A stretch of DNA of 64,000 bases. Source: a virus. Lineage: Duplodnaviria; Heunggongvirae; Uroviricota; Caudoviricetes. Both the position numbers and the translations under genes were made by a program. A model generated the notes under the pieces. The model was not told the origin of the DNA, made no database searches, and was given only the letters and a program-made list of their open reading frames with translations. Of the stretch, positions 4,891 through 29,167 are shown one piece after another. The stretch lies in IMG/VR virus record IMGVR_UViG_3300036768_001066; one strand, written 5' to 3'. The first letter of the stretch is position 1. Each line of letters starts with the position of its first letter.

Positions 4891-5148
4891 GTAATTTGGT
4901 GTTGTTTTGGTATATATCCCCAGGACCCGCTGGAAAAATTTATGGGGGCCTTCGTCGGACGTATCAGAAAAAGTTCTTTATTTGCAGTACAATTACGAAA
5001 CAAAAAGATATATAGAATATAACAAGCAATGAAAACTAACTCGACATACCTGTTTATGCTTACTGCTGCGGATTGCGCGGAAGAGGATAACATTGGGCTT
5101 GTTGAGCTAACGATGCGATAAGATATTTTATTCACGCGATACTTAACA

Positions 5149-19177: not shown

Positions 19178-19909
19178 ATGACAGAGGCGCAACTAATTCA
19201 AGAAATAAACAACGAGCTCACCCTATCGTGCGCGCTCCCGTACTCGCTCAACGAGGCGGAAGTCAAGCGTATCATAAAGAGGGCCCGCGAGTATTTCTAC
19301 GATAACTACCAATATGCCGTCGAGGACAGGTTCATCCTGATACCAGAGGGCATATTCCAGCACGAGAGCTTCAAGACCAAGCGCGAGATAATACTTCCAG
19401 ACTGCGTCATGTCGGTGTACGATATGCGCGAAATCACCGGTCTCGGACTCGTGGGCCAGCCGGAAAGAGACTTCTCGGACTCAAAGCTCCTCGGAGCCGA
19501 GATATTCCTTTCACCATTCCAAGGTGACAACCTCGTTTACAGGACGGCGATGTACAGCTACTTCGACCTCGCAAGGGCTTACCTTCTCGAGACCATAGCA
19601 TACAGCTTCAACAAGAACACGAAGAGAATAACTGTTATGGGCCGCAACCCGTTCAGGAGCGCAGTAATACGCACGATGGTGAAGATACCAGAAGAGAATC
19701 TTTATGACGACGAGCTGTTCGTTCGCTACTGCCTGGCGATGGCCAAGATAAACCTCGGACGCACGTTATCCATATTCAACTACAACCTGCCAGGCGGTGT
19801 ACAGATAAACTTCGACGGCATCAAACAGGACGGCAAAGAGGAGCTCGAGAAAATTCTGGCACAGATAGACAGCGAGAACTCTCCTGCATGGTTTTTACTG
19901 TGGAGTTGA
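19178..19909 (+). CDS. hypothetical protein
   Basis: 243-aa ORF. Confidence 0.55.
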   Translation: MTEAQLIQEINNELTLSCALPYSLNEAEVKRIIKRAREYFYDNYQYAVEDRFILIPEGIFQHESFKTKREIILPDCVMSVYDMREITGLGLVGQPERDFSDSKLLGAEIFLSPFQGDNLVYRTAMYSYFDLARAYLLETIAYSFNKNTKRITVMGRNPFRSAVIRTMVKIPEENLYDDELFVRYCLAMAKINLGRTLSIFNYNLPGGVQINFDGIKQDGKEELEKILAQIDSENSPAWFLLWS

Positions 19910-19981
19910 AAAATTAAGAGATATATAGATAAACAAACTTATCAGTGGAGATCCAAGACAGGCAAGGCCTTTGGCTCAATC

Positions 19982-21131
19982 ATGCAGTGTATATCGAAGA
20001 ACCCTGAACATGTGGCGGAGCTGCGAGAACTGACCCGGTTTCTCGACGAGATGTATGCACCAGCAGAAAATATTTCCATACAACAGCGGTTCTACCACGT
20101 GTGGTTTTCCAGCTATGAGATTGAGGTTTGTCCATATTGTTCGGCCCCGCGAGAGTTTTCAAAGATGAGAAAATTCTCCATCGATCGGTATGGCATCAAG
20201 CCAACAAATGCAGTTAACTATTACGCTACATGTACTGCTATAGAATGCAAGAAGAAGTATAACTTAGATAAGACGCAGGAAGCAGTGAAAGCTAAGTATG
20301 GAGTCGACAATTATTTTGAGACCAAAGAATGCAAAGAAAAGGTCATAGCGACAAACCGCGAGCGGTACGGTTGTGATCACCAGACGCAATCTCAGAACTT
20401 CAAGGATAAAGTCAAAGTTAACTTATATCAAAAAGTACGGAGTCGAGCACCACACGCAATCCGACCAGTCAAAGAAGAGGAAGATCGATACGGTCCGTGC
20501 CAAGTACGGTGTAGACCATGTGCTACAAAACAAGTCCGTAATGAAGAAGTTACAAAATACAAACAAGGAGAGGTACGGAGGCGCGTCATCGATGTGTTCG
20601 GATGTGGTGAAAGAAAAGGCTCGCAACACAAACAGGTCAAAGCACGGTGCAGACTGGTACACACAGTCCAAGGATTTCAGGGCCAAGTTCAGGGAGACGA
20701 TGGTGGAGCGGTATGGCGTAGAGCACATCATGCAGCACGCTCCGTCGTTTGATGCTAACAAGTCAGCACAGTTCAAGAAGAAATTATACATGTTCCCGTC
20801 TGGTAGGCTCGAGAAGATCCAAGGGTACGAAGGGTTTGCTATCAACGACCTGCTTAACATGGGGTATGTGGAGGACGACATAGTGGTGTCGAACGCAGAG
20901 ATAGAGAAGCACACGGGGCGCATCTGGTATGTCGATTCTGTAGGAATTAAACGCAAGTACTACCCCGATATTTATATAATATCTGAGAATAGAATAGTGG
21001 AGGTTAAGTGCGACTATACATTAAAAACAAACCTTCCATTGAACTTATTAAAAAAACAAGCAGCAGAAGCACTTGGTATTAAGTTCGAGTTTTGGATATA
21101 TAACGGTAAGGGTGTTAAAACTATAAAGTAG
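19982..21131 (+). CDS. putative nuclease: N-terminal CxxC zinc ribbon, tandem about 30-aa (K/R)YGV(D/E)H..Q repeats, C-terminal PD-(D/E)xK-like motif; interrupted by a +1 frameshift near 20400-20420
   Basis: Frame A (19982..20752) reads CPYCSAP..., KAKYGVDNY..., RERYGCDHQTQSQNFKDKVK, then junk. Frame B (20373..21131) resumes the repeat in phase: LTYIKKYGVEHHTQS...RAKYGVDHV...KERYGG...VERYGVEH... C-terminal ...YYPDIYIISENRIVEVKCD fits a PD...E.K nuclease core. Confidence 0.5.
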
Positions 21132-21186
21132 ATATTTTGTTGATGGACGACTATGAAGCGGGGCATGGTTGGAGTGGCAATCTAAT

Positions 21187-21480
21187 ATGAAACATCTAAA
21201 ACTATACGAAAGTTTCAATGAGAAACCAATCATGGTGTTCGATCGTACTCTGTACAGAGAACCGACTGAAGAGGAGCTTAGCGCGTTTGAGGACCATCCG
21301 AGTATTTCCAAGGAGGATGTCCTGAGCAATTTTCATTACATCTCGGTAGGCAAGGGCATATTCACCAAGGACAAGAAGGACCAGATAGTATCATGGATAG
21401 GCAAGCTCTGCAGACTATACCCCGACAATAATACGTACAAGGAGGCATTGGAACTTGCAAAGACAGAAACTACAAGATAA
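21187..21480 (+). CDS. small protein with the shared N-terminal leader (MKHLKLYESFNEK)
   Basis: ATG at 21187 in frame with track ORF 21169..21480. Confidence 0.55.
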   Translation: MKHLKLYESFNEKPIMVFDRTLYREPTEEELSAFEDHPSISKEDVLSNFHYISVGKGIFTKDKKDQIVSWIGKLCRLYPDNNTYKEALELAKTETTR

Positions 21481-22112
21481 TGGGGGGATATGCGATACAA
21501 GGTGTTAGAAAGATAACTGGTGACGAGGCACGCCAGACACTCTCTCCATTAAAGAGGTTCCTCGATCACTCGAAGGTCGAGACGGTCATGCTAATAGGAT
21601 CAGCGTGGCACCGGGAGGAGGGACTGTCCGGCGACCTGGATCTTGGTGTGAGAGTCGATCCGAAGCAGGACTTTACATGGGTCATGAGCGCCAAGCTTGG
21701 CAAGACCGTCCAGGGCAAGGCGATGCCGGGAATATCAGTGTACAGCTTCGGATTCCCGATATGTGGCAAGGCGATCAACGGGATGGTGCAGGTAGACCTC
21801 ATACCGGTGTACTACCCAGAATGGTCCAAATTCGTGTACGCGAAGGTGACCGGCAAGGCGAAGAGCGCACACAGGAACTGGTTGCTGTGTGCGCTCGCCA
21901 AGAGCAGGGGCGTCAAGTTCGACCTCAACAAGGGCGCAATGAAGGCGGAGAGCGTATGGTCGTCGTCGGTTGAGATAACGTCGGATCCCGACGAGTTCCT
22001 CAAGTGGCTCGGGATAACCAGGGCGGATGCGGACAGCTACGAGACCCTTTCTCAGGTAGTCCCGCAAGAGGTGCTGTATGAAGCCAACGAGAAATTGGCC
22101 GCGGTCAAGTGA
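21480..22112 (+). CDS. nucleotidyltransferase-fold protein (Pol-beta superfamily minimal NTase)
   Basis: IGSAWHREEGLSGDLDLGVRV matches hG[GS]-x9-13-D-h-[DE]-h. Start overlaps the upstream stop (TAATG). Confidence 0.5.
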   Translation: MGGYAIQGVRKITGDEARQTLSPLKRFLDHSKVETVMLIGSAWHREEGLSGDLDLGVRVDPKQDFTWVMSAKLGKTVQGKAMPGISVYSFGFPICGKAINGMVQVDLIPVYYPEWSKFVYAKVTGKAKSAHRNWLLCALAKSRGVKFDLNKGAMKAESVWSSSVEITSDPDEFLKWLGITRADADSYETLSQVVPQEVLYEANEKLAAVK

Positions 22113-22121
22113 TATATAAAG
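22111..22121 (+). promoter_or_regulatory. GATATATAAAG motif instance
   Basis: 18 nt upstream of ATG 22139. Confidence 0.4.
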
Positions 22122-22138
22122 AAACCAACCGAAAATAA

Positions 22139-22489
22139 ATGGAAAAGAAAGAATTCGACAGACTCCGTTTCGTCACACAGATGAACGAGATGATGCACAT
22201 CATCAAGACCAATCCGCTCAAGTCGCAACAGGATGCAGCCAGGATTGCGCTCCAGGCGATACAGGAGCAGTACAAGGAGAGGTTCGGCGAGTACTCGCAG
22301 AACCACATTGTTGCCGAAGGAATTGTGAAGGACGATGCTCCGGAGCTCGATGCCATAGTGGAAGAAATTGGCAAGATCGTGGAGACCGAGATAAACTCGA
22401 GGGTCGGCAAGGTCGGCAAGAGCGAGGTTAAGTACAAGGCGCAGTACGTCCTCGAAGAATTGATAAAGCTACTGCAGGCATCGGTCTAA
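22139..22489 (+). CDS. hypothetical protein
   Basis: 116-aa ORF. Confidence 0.5.
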   Translation: MEKKEFDRLRFVTQMNEMMHIIKTNPLKSQQDAARIALQAIQEQYKERFGEYSQNHIVAEGIVKDDAPELDAIVEEIGKIVETEINSRVGKVGKSEVKYKAQYVLEELIKLLQASV

Positions 22490-22923
22490 TGAAGTACATC
22501 AAGGACATAAACGAATCGATACAGCTCAATGGGAGCGGACCCACCAATATTACCGTGGCCGTTCGCAGACGTTCTCCGCAGAATCCACTCGGGCTGAATA
22601 ATTATTATATGATGTCCGGGCAGTTGGAACCGATACGAGACGACTACTACCAGACAGTGAGGGACGCTTGTTTCAACATTGGTATGGACTTCTTGTCAAT
22701 ATCTGAGAAGAACTTCACCATGCTCGACAGGCTAAAGGAGGTCATCGACAAGGTTGTCAACGAGAGGCAGGACGAGTTCGACCTGATAGTCTTCAACTGC
22801 AAGAACAGGAACTTCAGGACGCAGTATTGCGCCGAGACCGTGTTCCACACTATAGTTCAGGGCAGGTTAAATGCGCTCGCAGAGAGGCCGTTTGCAATGG
22901 GTGGACTCCAGCCACAACAATAA
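22489..22923 (+). CDS. hypothetical protein with the leader-like N-terminus (MKYIKDINESIQ)
   Basis: Start overlaps the previous stop (TAATG). First 8 codons are nearly identical at DNA level to the SprT-like gene start. Confidence 0.55.
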   Translation: MKYIKDINESIQLNGSGPTNITVAVRRRSPQNPLGLNNYYMMSGQLEPIRDDYYQTVRDACFNIGMDFLSISEKNFTMLDRLKEVIDKVVNERQDEFDLIVFNCKNRNFRTQYCAETVFHTIVQGRLNALAERPFAMGGLQPQQ

Positions 22924-23043
22924 ATGAGACACATCAAGATATTGGACCAAGGCTGTTAACCGAATCCGAACATGATGGCATAAAATATCATGTGGATAAG
23001 GGCGACGGTGTGCTAAACGTACGCATTTGGAAATCCAAATAAC

Positions 23044-23496
23044 TTACTGGTTATGCTTATTTAAGCGGTTCATCTCTCTATCCGCCTCGCGGTTCTTTAT
23101 CGTCTCGCGCTTGTCGTGGAGCTTCTTGCCCTTGGCAACGGCTATACCGAGCTTGCAGATTCCCCTCTGGTTGAGGTACATCGACTTCACCACCACGGTA
23201 GTGCCCTTTATGAGCTTGCCGGCAATCCTCTTTATTTCGGTCTTGTTCAGCAGTAACTTCCTAACTCTCAATGGGTCGTGGTTGTCCGCGGCATCCTGGA
23301 GCGGGTCCACCCGCATCCCCTTGATGAACACCTCGCCCCCGTCTATGTAGGCGTACGCCTCGTTTATGCTCGCGTGGCCCTGGCGTATAGACTTGATTTC
23401 CGTGCCCACCAGCATGATGCCGGCCTCGTACTCCTCTATGAATTCGTACTCGAACTTCGCCTTGCGGTTCTCGAATCGTATGTTGTTGTCTGCCAT
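23044..23496 (-). CDS. smpB: SsrA-binding protein SmpB
   Basis: Full-length alignment by eye to bacterial SmpB (FENRKAKFEYEFIEEYEAGIMLVGTEIKSIRQGHASINEAYAYI...). The C-terminal tail KKLHDKRETIKNREADREMNRL is the canonical SmpB tail. It is a lone minus-strand gene in a plus-strand block. Confidence 0.88.
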   Translation of the reverse strand: MADNNIRFENRKAKFEYEFIEEYEAGIMLVGTEIKSIRQGHASINEAYAYIDGGEVFIKGMRVDPLQDAADNHDPLRVRKLLLNKTEIKRIAGKLIKGTTVVVKSMYLNQRGICKLGIAVAKGKKLHDKRETIKNREADREMNRLNKHNQ

Positions 23497-23524
23497 AATT
23501 GGTACGAAGATAATAAAAATCTGT

Positions 23525-23538
23525 GATATATAAAAAAA
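23525..23538 (+). promoter_or_regulatory. GATATATAAAAAAAC motif instance
   Basis: 15 nt upstream of ATG 23553. The palindromic ATATATA core may also serve the divergent smpB. Confidence 0.4.
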
Positions 23539-23552
23539 CTACTTCCGACAGG

Positions 23553-23870
23553 ATGAAAAGACTTAAGACATTCGAGAGCTTCATCGTGGAGAACTTCGCC
23601 GATCCATACCCGGAAAAGACGGGCGGATCAGGCAACACGTACTATCTGTATATGTTCGACAGCAGCACCGAGGGGTTCTCCGGCGAGGTCAGGGACGGCG
23701 ACGGCAAGTGTGTGTTCACGATAACACCCAAGATACTCGAGGACGGCGGAATGTCCACACCCGACGACGTCACCGGACTCAGGAAGTACCTGATAGAGAA
23801 GAAAAAGAAGCTGTCGGAGACGGACGTTATCGAGATAGCGCAATCAGCCCCGGTACAAACAACCGACTAA
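23553..23870 (+). CDS. small protein with the shared N-terminal leader (MKRLKTFESFIVEN)
   Basis: ATG at 23553 in frame with track ORF 23523..23870. Confidence 0.55.
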   Translation: MKRLKTFESFIVENFADPYPEKTGGSGNTYYLYMFDSSTEGFSGEVRDGDGKCVFTITPKILEDGGMSTPDDVTGLRKYLIEKKKKLSETDVIEIAQSAPVQTTD

Positions 23871-23873
23871 ATA

Positions 23874-24296
23874 ATGGACAAGATGAACAAAAAGGTTATG
23901 AGATTCAACGAGTGGCTCGACGAGAACGAACTCGTCGACCAGGGCCTCGCGGGCGCGGGCGGCGAACAAACGCAGACGGCCGAAATCCCGGGTGCCGAAG
24001 CCGTAGCTGCTGCAGCACCGCGGGAGGAAATACCAGGTGGACTCGCATCGGGCAAGACCGCTGCCGACGTGGCGTCAAAGCACAACGTCTCTGTGGAGGA
24101 GGTAAACGTCCAGCTCGAAAGGGGCAAGAAGGTTGAGCTCGAGCACACAGACGACGAGAAGGTCGCGTGCGAGATAGCGCTCGACCACCTGATGGAAGAT
24201 CCTAAGTACTACGACAAGCTCGCGGCCATCGAGGATGAGCCAAAGGAACCAGCTGACGAGATCAAGGGCAAGAAAGCCGAAAATACAGAGGAGTAA
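23874..24296 (+). CDS. acidic hypothetical protein (C-terminal ...EHTDDEKVACEIALDHLMEDPKYY)
   Basis: 140-aa ORF. Possible internal start at MRFNEWLDENE, which has a weak resemblance to the leader. Confidence 0.5.
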   Translation: MDKMNKKVMRFNEWLDENELVDQGLAGAGGEQTQTAEIPGAEAVAAAAPREEIPGGLASGKTAADVASKHNVSVEEVNVQLERGKKVELEHTDDEKVACEIALDHLMEDPKYYDKLAAIEDEPKEPADEIKGKKAENTEE

Positions 24297-24472
24297 CATT
24301 ATTACATGGATTATCTAAAGGCATATAACAATCTTATCGAGACTCGGGAGAACAGAATTCTTATGGATGATGTTTACTATGAGTCTCACCATATTGTTAT
24401 GCGCTCAATGAGTGGCTCAGATGATCAAGATAACTTAGTTGCTCGAAAGTGGAAAAATAATATATCAGTATA

Positions 24473-24835
24473 ATGAGGGATCTTTACATGAGGGATCCTG
24501 CCACGGATCCGAATTACAAAGAAGGCATCCTCGAAATAAGTGACGAAATGGAGGCCTTGATCGCGGAAATTAAAATGATGTTGTATACCAACCGCGGTGA
24601 GGTGCTCGGCGCGCCTGACTTTGGCGCCAACCTCGAGGAGATGCTCTTCACCTTCGGTCTGAACGAGTACTCGCTGAGGCAAATGCTGAGGGACCAGACA
24701 CTCAAGTTCATACCGAGGTCCGTAAACTACAGCGTCGACTTCGACGTAAAGTTCGCAAGGGGCACGGTCAGGGACATGTGCCTGATAGACATATACATAA
24801 ACAACAGGCCGGCGTTCGGCGTGCTGATAAAATAA
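24473..24835 (+). CDS. baseplate wedge protein, gp25 / GPW-like
   Basis: MMLYTNRGEVLGAPDFGANLEEMLFTF matches the gp25/GPW core (i..iL.T..GER...P.FG..l..llF). Size 120 aa is typical. Confidence 0.6.
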   Translation: MRDLYMRDPATDPNYKEGILEISDEMEALIAEIKMMLYTNRGEVLGAPDFGANLEEMLFTFGLNEYSLRQMLRDQTLKFIPRSVNYSVDFDVKFARGTVRDMCLIDIYINNRPAFGVLIK

Positions 24836-24856: not shown

Positions 24857-25792
24857 ATGAAGAAACTGAAGGACATATCAGAATTCGGGGGGCCTGGTGA
24901 GACCGCGCTCGACGCTGCTTTGAAAGCACCGAACGGCAAGAAGTCCTCCCTGCCCGCGAATTTGCACGCGATGGTCCGTACGCCGGAGTTCAAGACCTGG
25001 TTCGGTGACTGGGAGAACGACCCGGAGAACTCGAGCAAGGTTGTGGACAAGAACGGCGAGCCCATGGTCGTGTACCACGGAACTCCGTCATTTGGATTCA
25101 AGGAGTTCATGAATGACTACAAGATGGCAAGGGCGACTGACAACGAGACGAACGACCTCGGCATCTGGTTCACGAACGACCTGCGCGTGGCAAAGGAATT
25201 CATGTTCAATTCGTCTAAGGGTGGCATCTACGAGGTGTTCCTAAACATGAGGAACCCCAAGGTATTCAAGCCGGCTCTGTTCAACCAATCAGAGATAGAC
25301 GCACTGGAGCAGACAATACACGACTTGAACGTGGACAAGGTCTCACTCGGCTGGTCAGTCAACGATATGACGCCAGACAAGCGCGAGAAGTTCTACAAGA
25401 TAGAGAGGCAGATGAAGGACCTGCACGACCAGATCAGGCTGCTGAAGCACACGGATTCATTCGAGCAGTTCATGAACTACAGGGACAAATACACAGAATA
25501 CATAAACGGTCAGAAGGGGAAGCCTGGCGCATGGCTCGAGAGGTACATCAACACTAACAAGAAGGAGGCAAACCTTAAGCTATTGAAGGAGCTGACCGAC
25601 AGCCAGCACGACGGTTTTGCCATAGTAGATACCCGGTACGACGCACCGAGTAAGAACTCCAGGGTGAGCCAGTACTGCGTATTCGACTCGAAGAACATAA
25701 AGAGCGTCGACAACAACGGCAGGTTCGACCCGGGGACGAGTAATATATACGAGGGAATTCACATAAAAAGCATAGACAGCTTCGATATATAA
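24857..25792 (+). CDS. ADP-ribosyltransferase-fold protein, H-Y-E (PARP/Tpt1-KptA-like) type, paralog A; carries the leader (MKKLKDISEFGG)
   Basis: VVYHGTPSFGFKEF (H-G-T motif, compare KptA LYHGT and PARP HGS) followed by DLGIWFTNDLRVAKEF (compare PARP GKGIYFAD) and a GGIYEVF candidate catalytic Glu. Shares this core with 31351..32211 and 35536..36165. Confidence 0.5.
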   Translation: MKKLKDISEFGGPGETALDAALKAPNGKKSSLPANLHAMVRTPEFKTWFGDWENDPENSSKVVDKNGEPMVVYHGTPSFGFKEFMNDYKMARATDNETNDLGIWFTNDLRVAKEFMFNSSKGGIYEVFLNMRNPKVFKPALFNQSEIDALEQTIHDLNVDKVSLGWSVNDMTPDKREKFYKIERQMKDLHDQIRLLKHTDSFEQFMNYRDKYTEYINGQKGKPGAWLERYINTNKKEANLKLLKELTDSQHDGFAIVDTRYDAPSKNSRVSQYCVFDSKNIKSVDNNGRFDPGTSNIYEGIHIKSIDSFDI

Positions 25793-26885: not shown

Positions 26886-28616
26886 ATGGCAGAGCAACCA
26901 AGCATATTCAAGAAGAACCGACTCGCGATAGAACTGCTCATCGAGGACTCGATAAACTTCACCGTCGACAAGTTCCGCCAGAGCAGGACCAACTTCACGG
27001 TAGCATCCGCTTATGGCCAGATAATCTTTGTCCTGCACAACCTGGCGCAGATGATACTGTACTACATTGAGGACTCCATAACCGAGCTAAACATTAACAC
27101 GGCTACCAGGGCCAACTCGGTCACCGGTCTTGCGCGTCTCGCCGGGCACAACTCTACGAGGGCGATCTCTGCCGTCGGCGAGATCGGTCTCTCGATAAAG
27201 GCCGGGGCGGACATAGACATACCGGGGGGCACCGTCATACTGCCGAACTGGACCAAGATAAAGTGTGTGAACAACGGCCAGACATACATGCTCGACCTAC
27301 CTGGCGACGAGGTGCGCATACCTCTGGACGGGTCGAAGAACGGCACGCCAGTGAACATAATCCAGGGCCTGCTCGAATCGCAGAGCACTACCGGTACGGG
27401 CAAGCCATTACAGTCGTTCTCTCCCAACTTCAACCAGACAGTGCTCGTTGAACACTATCGTGTCAACGTGTACGTCAACGGGGAGAAGTGGAAGCTGTAC
27501 GACTCAATGTACGACATGCCGCGCGAGGCTAAAGGATGCCTTGTCAAGACTGGCATAAATTCCGGTATAGACGTTATATTCGGCAACGGTCACTTCGGCA
27601 AGATGCCTGAGCTCGGCGCCGAGATACTCGTCGAGTACGTGGTGTCATCCGGTCTCAACGGTAACCTCGTGCTCGCCACAGACGAGGAGGCCGTGTACAA
27701 GTGGGACGACGTAGGGTACAATCTGTACGGTGAGGAGCTCGACCTAAACGAACTTCTGACAGTCAGGAGTATCAACGCACCGGACTTTGGGTCCAACCCG
27801 GAGCTGCTCGAGCTCACCAGGCTCATAGCGCCGAAGACTTCCAGGTCGTACACGCTCGCTAACGAGGACCACTGCATCGTGTTCCTCGAGAAGTTCAACC
27901 AGTTCTCCATCATAGACGCGTACACCACGCCGAATGATGCGGACCTGACCGACGACAAGATAATCTACCTGTTCCTCGTGCCAGACGTCAAGAAGAAGCT
28001 GAAGTCTAACGAGAACTACTTCAACATAGACGAGTCGAGGTTCACACTCAACGACTTCCAGAAGGAGAAGGTGCTGACGTTGTTTGAGAGATCCGGGCAG
28101 AAGATAGTGAGCACCGAGCTGCAGATAGTGGACCCCAAGATAAGCAGGTTCGTCATAAACATAGCGCTGATAGTTTTTGACGACATCCCGCAGGATATAA
28201 TAAAGCAGGACGTCATAGAGAAGCTGAGCGACTACTTCTTGAACATCAGGCGAAGGGACCGTATCCCGCGCTCCGACCTCATCTCAATATTGGAGAACAT
28301 ACCGGGGATAGACTCGGTCAACATCTCGATAGTGTCAGAGATAGACGAGCGCCAGTATCAGCTTTCGCTGACGTCGGGAAGGAGCTCGACCGCCAACTTG
28401 GAGCCGCCTCGCATTGACGAGTTCGGCGACATACTCATACAGCCGGGCGAGCTCGCCATAGTGCGCGGAGGATGGACCGACAGGAGAGGCATAACATACG
28501 AGAAGGACGTAGACGACGAGGTACCGAGCTCGGTTAACATCGTCATCAAGAAGGTCATACCGAAGACGTACAACACGGGGGTAAACCAGAACACCAAATC
28601 TAATCTTAGAGGATAA
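26886..28616 (+). CDS. baseplate J-like (gp6/gpJ family) protein
   Basis: 576 aa. N-terminal ...FTVDKFRQSRTNFTVASAYGQ and C-terminal ...RRDRIPRSDLISILENIPGIDSVNISIV resemble conserved ends of the Baseplate_J family. Lies next to the gp25-like gene. Confidence 0.5.
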   Translation: MAEQPSIFKKNRLAIELLIEDSINFTVDKFRQSRTNFTVASAYGQIIFVLHNLAQMILYYIEDSITELNINTATRANSVTGLARLAGHNSTRAISAVGEIGLSIKAGADIDIPGGTVILPNWTKIKCVNNGQTYMLDLPGDEVRIPLDGSKNGTPVNIIQGLLESQSTTGTGKPLQSFSPNFNQTVLVEHYRVNVYVNGEKWKLYDSMYDMPREAKGCLVKTGINSGIDVIFGNGHFGKMPELGAEILVEYVVSSGLNGNLVLATDEEAVYKWDDVGYNLYGEELDLNELLTVRSINAPDFGSNPELLELTRLIAPKTSRSYTLANEDHCIVFLEKFNQFSIIDAYTTPNDADLTDDKIIYLFLVPDVKKKLKSNENYFNIDESRFTLNDFQKEKVLTLFERSGQKIVSTELQIVDPKISRFVINIALIVFDDIPQDIIKQDVIEKLSDYFLNIRRRDRIPRSDLISILENIPGIDSVNISIVSEIDERQYQLSLTSGRSSTANLEPPRIDEFGDILIQPGELAIVRGGWTDRRGITYEKDVDDEVPSSVNIVIKKVIPKTYNTGVNQNTKSNLRG

Positions 28617-29167
28617 TGAGATTTCTAAAGACATACGCCGGGCTCTTTGAGAGCGAGAATAGTGAGAAGAAGCTCGCGTGCGCGCTCGTATCATTCGACG
28701 TGCCACTTCTCAAGACGCTGCACTCTGCCATAGACAAGGAGGACCTCGACGAGAAAGGATTCGAGGATGAGCCGCACGTAACGCTGCTGTTCGGCCTTCA
28801 CCAGGACGAGGTCACGGCGGAACAAGCCTTCGCGTGCATGCGCAATTGCATGGGCGAGGACGGCTGCGGCGACATAACGCTCGGGCCCGTTTCAGTATTC
28901 TCCAACGACAAGTTCGACGTGCTAAAGTTCGATGCCATCGGGGATTGGCTGCATGCCACTAACAGAGAGCTGAAGGAACTGCCACACACAAACGAGTATC
29001 CAGACTACAAACCTCACTGCACGCTCGCATACCTGAAGCCAGGGCTCGGGCAGAAGTACGTTGCGCTTTTTAACGGTCTATTGTACAAAGTGAAGCCGAA
29101 AGAGTTTATATACTCAGACGCCGACAGGAACCAAACAAAAATGCCGATAGTACAAAATGCCGCTTAA
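28616..29167 (+). CDS. 2H phosphoesterase (LigT / 2'-5' RNA ligase / cyclic phosphodiesterase-like); carries the leader (MRFLKTYAGLFESEN)
   Basis: Two H-x-T-x motifs at the expected spacing: PHVTLLFG and PHCTLAYL. Confidence 0.65.
   Translation: MRFLKTYAGLFESENSEKKLACALVSFDVPLLKTLHSAIDKEDLDEKGFEDEPHVTLLFGLHQDEVTAEQAFACMRNCMGEDGCGDITLGPVSVFSNDKFDVLKFDAIGDWLHATNRELKELPHTNEYPDYKPHCTLAYLKPGLGQKYVALFNGLLYKVKPKEFIYSDADRNQTKMPIVQNAA

Follow-up and report, generated by a model that had tools for sequence, protein, structure and literature searches.

A frameshifted DUF7487 gene downstream of gp13 in a jumbo phage is probably a recently inactivated, homing-endonuclease-like gene

Positions 19943-21131 of the window (the whole 64,000-nucleotide stretch of phage DNA that was analysed) are best interpreted as a recently inactivated copy of a free-standing, homing-endonuclease-like gene of the DUF7487 family, a reading to which we assign a probability of about 0.75. 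The window copy differs from other DUF7487 members in being broken by a frameshift and in having lost its start codon. Among the options listed in the original prediction, a recent pseudogene is favoured because the gene carries this second lesion, because orthologues at the same position are intact, because decayed copies in relatives bear other lesions, and because no recoding signal is present. The region should consequently be annotated as one disrupted gene and not as two hypothetical ORFs, and the 252-aa "DUF7487 protein" in public databases is a fragment. As such, the finding in the window is an ordinary one, that is, one more decayed homing-endonuclease-like gene.

Reading frames and site of the frameshift

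The two overlapping frames with a +1 shift that had been described from the sequence are both present as ORFs on the + strand, at 19982..20752 (frame A, 256 aa) and 20373..21131 (+1 frame, 252 aa), and the lesion that separates them can be located. Frame A is homologous to the DUF7487 family only through K145 (20414-20416), at the end of the segment ...QNFKDKVK, and past this residue it encodes arginine-rich nonsense. The +1 frame is nonsense before 20418, and then reads LTYIKKYGVEHHTQS... as far as the stop codon at 21129-21131. Family homology passes to the +1 frame at a Leu/Thr pair (20418-20423), and the same frame change is seen by tblastn. In a codon-by-codon comparison with 11 intact copies, the four bases GTTA (20417-20420) replace a single codon between a Lys codon (AAA or AAG) and an invariant Thr; judged by this alignment, the lesion is a 1-nt insertion that produces a +1 shift at codon 146. 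When one base is dropped, the repaired ORF encodes 382 aa, one fewer than the 383 first estimated, and its alignment with the homologues is gap-free at the repaired junction. The shift lies close to where repeat unit 2 ends, and thus inside the tandem repeats as had been noted. The longest homopolymer at the shift site, AAAGTTAACT, is at most 3 nt, and the two frames overlap by 15 codons. The parts of the broken gene are as follows.

19982..20416, + strand: frame-A segment encoding the nuclease N-terminus (residues 1-145 of the 382 in the repaired protein), with the zinc motif, repeat 1 and most of repeat 2
20417..20420, + strand: frameshift site GTTA, from codon comparison with intact copies and tblastn
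20418..21131, + strand: +1-frame segment encoding the C-terminus (residues 146-382) and the stop codon, with the end of repeat 2, repeats 3-7 and the nuclease domain
20421..20752, + strand: out-of-frame tail of frame A, 109 open codons past the shift, no homology

As for the 109-codon open tail of frame A, it was considered as a real overlapping product and rejected in favour of a genome-wide property of codon context. The tail is unusual relative to within-gene codon shuffling (P ~0.001), and 4.3% of the positions in the real genes of the window precede at least 109 open codons in the -1 frame. For real genes on the + strand, the -1 frame contains 0.032 stops per codon compared with 0.066 in the +1 frame, and it is because of this scarcity of stops that long spurious overlapping ORFs are frequent. 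Such ORFs, which reach 295 codons, are common in the window and can mislead an ORF-based reading.

Protein family and domain architecture

The repaired protein matches Pfam DUF7487 (PF24308) with E = 2.1e-59 and 201.5 bits (cut-off 27), where model positions 1-211 of 220 align with residues 142-357, and it also matches PHROGs 3339 and 12131, both annotated "homing endonuclease". With these families it shares the (K/R)YG repeats and a C-terminal PD...ExK domain. A search of 5.8 billion proteins returned a best homologue with E = 1.9e-167 and about 1,950 DUF7487 relatives at E <= 1e-5; all of the homologues listed, at least 120, carry PF24308. The best ~60 homologues are single ORFs of 398-407 aa, are 50-66% identical to the repaired protein and cover 98-100% of its length, and the intact protein in relatives has ~401 aa. 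Sequence searches of NCBIfam, PADLOC and the PDB with the repaired protein gave no useful match, and Foldseek found weak matches in the PDB. A literature search for DUF7487 returned no paper, and a broader search nothing directly relevant. The C-terminus of one homologue, P0060 (...VSYTHLRAHET), looks like a translated sequencing adapter at a contig end.

The N-terminal part contains four invariant cysteines (CPYC...Cx4C), of which the CxxC zinc ribbon recognized earlier is a part: C50/C53 (20129-20140), C84 (20231-20233) and C89 (20246-20248). The repeats that had been noticed are real, and comprise seven units, each exactly 23 residues long and with a (K/R)(Y/H)G anchor, which together span residues 105-265 (nt 20294-20777) and have the consensus x(K/R)(Y/H)Gx(D/E)Hxx(Q/T)xxxxKxKxxxTNx. 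Each unit is predicted to form one ~15-residue helix and a loop. The number of units varies across the DUF7487 family from about 5 to 15, and the array is presumed to be a DNA-binding module. The repetition resides in the protein: Tandem Repeats Finder detected no DNA-level tandem repeat in the region, and the DNA matches at the KYG anchors are imperfect and only 16-27 nt long. DNA repeats were on these grounds rejected as a cause of slippage or mis-assembly.

20294..20777, + strand: array of seven 23-residue repeats, a unit count that varies across the DUF7487 family
20781-21128, + strand: PD-(D/E)xK nuclease domain, with PD at 20964-20969 and ExK at 21000-21008

In the C-terminal domain, residues E277/E283, P328-D329 and E340-V-K342 do not vary among 13 sequences, in agreement with the PD-(D/E)xK-like block first seen in the sequence, and strands and helices are predicted over residues 267-373 with pLDDT values of 82-96. 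Both the signature and the modelled fold place the domain in the PD-(D/E)xK superfamily as a predicted nuclease. The whole architecture recurs in a viral structure library, where the giant-virus proteins bear the names "Csr/MutH/archaeal HJR family nuclease" and "zinc-ribbon-containing protein" and the phage proteins are called "putative homing endonuclease". Among large phages, the family occurs in RaK2/K64-1-like, Lak, Dickeya and Vibrio phages. In some huge phages it is multi-copy, with 13 matches in LR756500.1 (a 462-kb uncultured phage) and 4-10 in Lak megaphage records, and judging from these counts, the multi-copy occurrence would be consistent with a proliferating selfish gene. The original prediction was of a homing or defence-type nuclease. 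The homing part agrees with the PHROGs annotation and with the pattern at the locus described below; for the defence part, the nuclease had no match at E <= 1 among PADLOC defence families. The gene is located in the structural-gene region of the phage.

The lost start and a promoter-like motif

The ORF does begin at 19982 as first described, but the true gene start lies further upstream, where in-frame codons persist at 19943-19981. These codons (CAG TGG AGA TCC AAG ACA GGC AAG GCC TTT GGC TCA ATC) encode QWRSKTGKAFGSI, which corresponds to family positions ~9-21. No in-frame ATG, GTG or TTG is found between the gp13 stop codon (19907-19909) and 19982, and the presumed transcript would have the in-frame ATG at 19982 as its first. 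Intact relatives start ~40 nt past the gp13 stop and 28-30 nt past a GATATATA(A/G) motif, and their N-terminus reads MCILEKIE.WR.K.GKAFG.I. In the window, motif and leader match those of locus L082, and then pass directly into codon ~9. We favour a deletion of ~24-27 nt that would have taken the ATG and the first ~8 codons, with the junction at ~19942/19943, on the basis of comparison with L082/L083 and other intact copies by pairwise alignment and inspection. MAFFT placed the gap in the intergenic spacer, a placement that we rejected in favour of the pairwise result; the start codon is absent in both.

19920..19928, + strand: motif GATATATAG, the upstream signal of the nuclease gene, still present; the same motif precedes the intact L082 orthologue
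19943..19981, + strand: residual 5' codons QWRSKTGKAFGSI, in frame with ATG 19982, without a start codon
21095..21103, + strand: second motif copy GATATATAA, at the nuclease C-terminus, within the conserved codons for F-W-I-Y-N

The motif GATATATAR occurs ten times in the window, at 5007, 17605, 19920, 21095, 22111, 23525, 25784, 26856, 36157 and 53395, always on the + strand and compared with 0.58 copies expected. Most copies lie 28-35 nt ahead of an ATG, and from this distribution GATATATAR looks like a promoter motif of the phage. It is reminiscent of the T4 late promoter TATAAATA. Genes in the window have A-rich leaders and no Shine-Dalgarno sequence. The copy at 21095..21103 probably serves to drive the gene downstream. 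The nuclease gene of relatives has a motif copy on either side, the two forming short direct repeats, and the window has the same arrangement (19920 and 21095).

The gp13-downstream site in related phages

In the window as in relatives, the nuclease gene is positioned directly downstream of the gene for a gp13-like protein.

19178..19909, + strand: gp13-like neck / head-tail adaptor gene, 243 aa (Pfam Phage_T4_gp13; PHROG 211, head-tail adaptor)

The site was compared across 80 IMG/VR loci that were retrieved with the gp13 protein. The closest homologue of the nuclease, P0001 (66% identity, L082/L083), is intact, directly follows a gp13 gene of 73% identity, and its locus is found on two independent ENA contigs. 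An intact nuclease gene in the same place and orientation is present at 15 of the 80 loci. Five others carry, at the same site, a distant DUF7487 gene on the opposite strand, and these genes suggest, as far as sequence comparison can tell, an independent invasion of the same intergenic hotspot. Remnants of the gene are found at another five loci, and all the remaining loci among the 80 are empty.

L021, 6814-7917, - strand: distant DUF7487 gene (34-41% identity for this group of five)
L065, L068, L069 and L070, 6818-7726, - strand: distant DUF7487 gene of the same group
L044: remnant, ATG-TAG at codon 2 plus an internal deletion
L025: remnant, large internal deletion with 16 codons of the 5' end kept
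L027 and L031: remnants, large internal deletion with codons 1-61 and 358-401 kept
L011: remnant, 3' stub with only the last ~13 codons
L085, 2637-3843: disrupted copy in a further relative, with a frameshift at codon ~25-28, codons 1-25 in one frame and 28-401 in another

Comparison of the occupied locus L013 with L011 reveals a clean 1,193-bp indel between flanks that are 98.9% identical, and a similar presence/absence difference separates L045 and L046. The indel in L013 is bounded at both edges by the 11-bp repeat TTTGGATATAT, which is the promoter-like motif; one copy lies ahead of the gene and the other in the C-terminal codons F-W-I-Y-(N/D), and a deletion between the two copies gives the L011 sequence. 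Mismatch profiles around the indel display no clear co-conversion tract. The frameshift in the disrupted copy of L085 is near an A-rich run, CAAAATAAAAACA, at a place different from that in the window, as expected for random decay, and P0064 (280 aa), as listed in the database, represents only a fragment of this copy. A second candidate for an N-terminally truncated copy, P0007 (380 aa), was dismissed as a gene-calling artefact, since its locus L086 has a full ORF of 401 codons. The copy with a V start, P0121, was not found on any contig. Exact-pattern scans across the shift site, with 1-6 gap bases, detected neither the same allele nor a repaired one in IMG/VR or JGI metagenome contigs, and a megablast search of 3.2 kb against GenBank phages gave no match.

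The gene is thus present or absent sporadically at one fixed site between conserved genes, as is characteristic of free-standing homing endonucleases, and decayed copies and remnants occupy the same site, as in the homing endonuclease life cycle. Together, the occupied, empty and decayed sites follow the cycle of invasion, decay and loss that is expected of a free-standing homing endonuclease gene.

Alternative explanations for the broken frame

If the extra base at 20417-20420 were a sequencing or assembly artefact, the phage would have one intact ORF. A single base is indeed all that separates the two frames, the repaired protein keeps nearly all conserved residues, and the two assemblies with the insertion may share sample and reads, which makes a systematic error common to both possible. 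Against this stand the absence of a homopolymer longer than 3 in AAAGTTAACT and of a DNA-level repeat to confuse an assembler, the identical sequence obtained by two different assembly pipelines (with Logan reporting its contig in two samples), and the unbroken state of 30 further large ORFs across the window, 13,726 codons in all. The same gene also bears a second lesion, the missing start, and decayed copies are common at the locus in relatives. The earlier suggestion of an assembly indel in a repetitive segment is weakened because the repeats exist at the protein level only and the sequence occurs in two assemblies, and we regard an artefact as quite unlikely. A programmed +1 frameshift, also raised in the original prediction, would require that the Lys-tRNA in the P site slips from AAA to AAG at GTC-AAA-G to yield a low level of full-length nuclease, for example to limit toxicity. 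The AAA-G sequence does permit re-pairing of Lys-tRNA in the +1 frame, the trans-frame product ...KVK-LTYIKKYG... is exactly family-consistent, and both frames are otherwise clean. This explanation must nevertheless be considered very improbable. Each of the 17 homologues at this position whose genes are complete is a single ORF and has an ordinary codon at the shift column, none sharing the shift, and in the other frameshifted copy, that of L085, a different codon is affected. In the 0 frame the shift site is followed by GTT, a sense codon with no apparent reason for slow decoding, and 109 codons remain open past the shift. No Shine-Dalgarno-like stimulator is present, in a genome that does not use Shine-Dalgarno sequences, folding of the RNA downstream is no more stable than that of shuffled sequence (z = -0.77), the A run is too short for transcriptional slippage, and the start codon of the nuclease is missing as well. 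In sum, neither a conserved shift site nor a slow or stop A-site codon or other stimulatory signal is found.

The gene might also be split and still working, such that the +1-frame ORF yields a product of 252 aa, or a shorter one initiated internally, that functions alone with five repeats and no zinc motif. This ORF spans the whole Pfam DUF7487 model, is predicted by gene callers and has its catalytic residues intact, and a natural member that lacks the N-terminal part is known in Vibrio phage Va1, where an "HJR family nuclease" matches residues 112-373. The only +1-frame start upstream of the shift is however GTG 20373, which has neither an A-rich leader nor a GATATATAR motif, and no ATG follows in this frame until 56 codons later. 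In all close relatives, one ORF encodes the zinc motif, with its four invariant cysteines, together with seven repeats, and the 15-codon overlap of the frames looks accidental. A split but functional gene is on balance unlikely.

Recent inactivation of a mobile nuclease gene accounts for two independent lesions in the window copy, the 1-nt insertion and the ~24-27-nt 5' deletion, as a result of which the full-length nuclease would no longer be made. The 5' deletion may not be inactivating by itself, given that the first ATG (19982) is in frame. The repaired protein keeps the family residue at 124 and differs at 6 of the 130 positions with at least 95% conservation, while the intact sister differs at 7; nearly all divergence would therefore have accumulated under selection, and the inactivation would be recent. 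The catalytic residues and the promoter-like motif are all intact, which speaks against a pseudogene, and a truncated nuclease could conceivably still be made from the +1-frame ORF. Rescue of some full-length enzyme by low-level AAA-to-AAG slippage is less likely again than the repeat-guided mode of action considered in the next section.

Comparison with known homing endonucleases

By analogy with free-standing homing endonucleases of phages, an intact DUF7487 protein would cut the gene-less genomes of co-infecting relatives near the site, and recombinational repair would then copy the nuclease gene into the cut genome. The repeat array would read the DNA and the C-terminal PD-(D/E)xK domain would cut it. 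A function of the DUF7487 family as homing endonuclease is putative, and no published characterization was found. The series at the gp13-downstream site is the first comparative evidence that we have found for DUF7487 proteins behaving as mobile homing endonucleases, and it makes this site, in the jumbo-phage clade, a complete invasion-decay-loss series of a selfish nuclease gene.

Free-standing homing endonucleases of T4-like phages belong to the GIY-YIG type (Seg) or the HNH type (Mob). As for Seg and Mob genes, the DUF7487 gene has its own promoter-like signal, is inserted between conserved genes (here structural ones), is sporadic in close relatives, and occurs in decayed copies. Unlike Seg and Mob, the catalytic domain is of PD-(D/E)xK type instead of GIY-YIG or HNH, and the presumed DNA-binding part consists of 23-residue repeats and a zinc motif instead of NUMOD or helix-turn-helix elements. 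Homing endonucleases with a PD-(D/E)xK fold are I-Ssp6803I and I-Bth0305I (PDB 3r3p). However, both are intron-encoded and without a repeat array, and have no detectable sequence similarity to the nuclease. The likeness to TnsA, the endonuclease subunit of the Tn7 transposase (PDB 1t0f), is in fold only (14% identity), and in contrast to TnsA, no TnsB or TnsC partner or transposon context is found in the window.

The homing-endonuclease cycle of invasion, degeneration and loss was reportedly described by Goddard and Burt for yeast intron and intein elements. In analogy to that cycle, empty, intact, frameshifted, nonsense-plus-deletion and stub states are found here at one locus; the differences are that the present gene is free-standing and resides in uncultured jumbo phages, and that the series is inferred from metagenomic contigs only.

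A more far-reaching proposal is that DUF7487 constitutes a class of free-standing homing endonuclease in which the variable repeat array reads DNA in a modular manner and guides a TnsA-like PD-(D/E)xK cutter. We put this forward as speculative and rather doubtful. If true, DUF7487 would be a new repeat-guided nuclease scaffold common to jumbo phages and giant eukaryotic viruses, and the window copy would be just one decayed member of the class. The architecture, in which variable repeats are coupled to a TnsA-like nuclease, is unstudied, and because the family is large, occurs in phages and giant viruses, and combines variable repeats with a compact nuclease, an intact member is worth biochemical study.

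Genomic setting

Over 20.8 kb the window matches, at 100% identity, a 75.7-kb Logan contig (SRR11727984) that is reported in two samples, and a 373,759-bp JGI contig also carries the 252-aa ORF, which indicates that the window belongs to the genome of an uncultured jumbo phage. In most relatives gp13 is followed by a gene whose homologue in the window is at 24473..24835 (120 aa), and the nuclease gene thus lies at the left edge of a 4.5-kb variable island. This island (19910-24472) includes genes of 82-97, 210, 116, 144, 150, 105 and 140 aa, which are mostly absent from related loci. The 150-aa ORF (23044-23496, - strand) is oriented opposite to its neighbours and has a Pfam match to SmpB, the tmRNA-binding protein of trans-translation. 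Beyond the island, the genes at 24857-25792 and 28616-29167 have Pfam ART-PolyVal matches (an ADP-ribosyltransferase-like domain) and weak or faint matches to 2',5' RNA ligase / Acb1-like phosphodiesterase; from these matches, they may have counter-defence functions.
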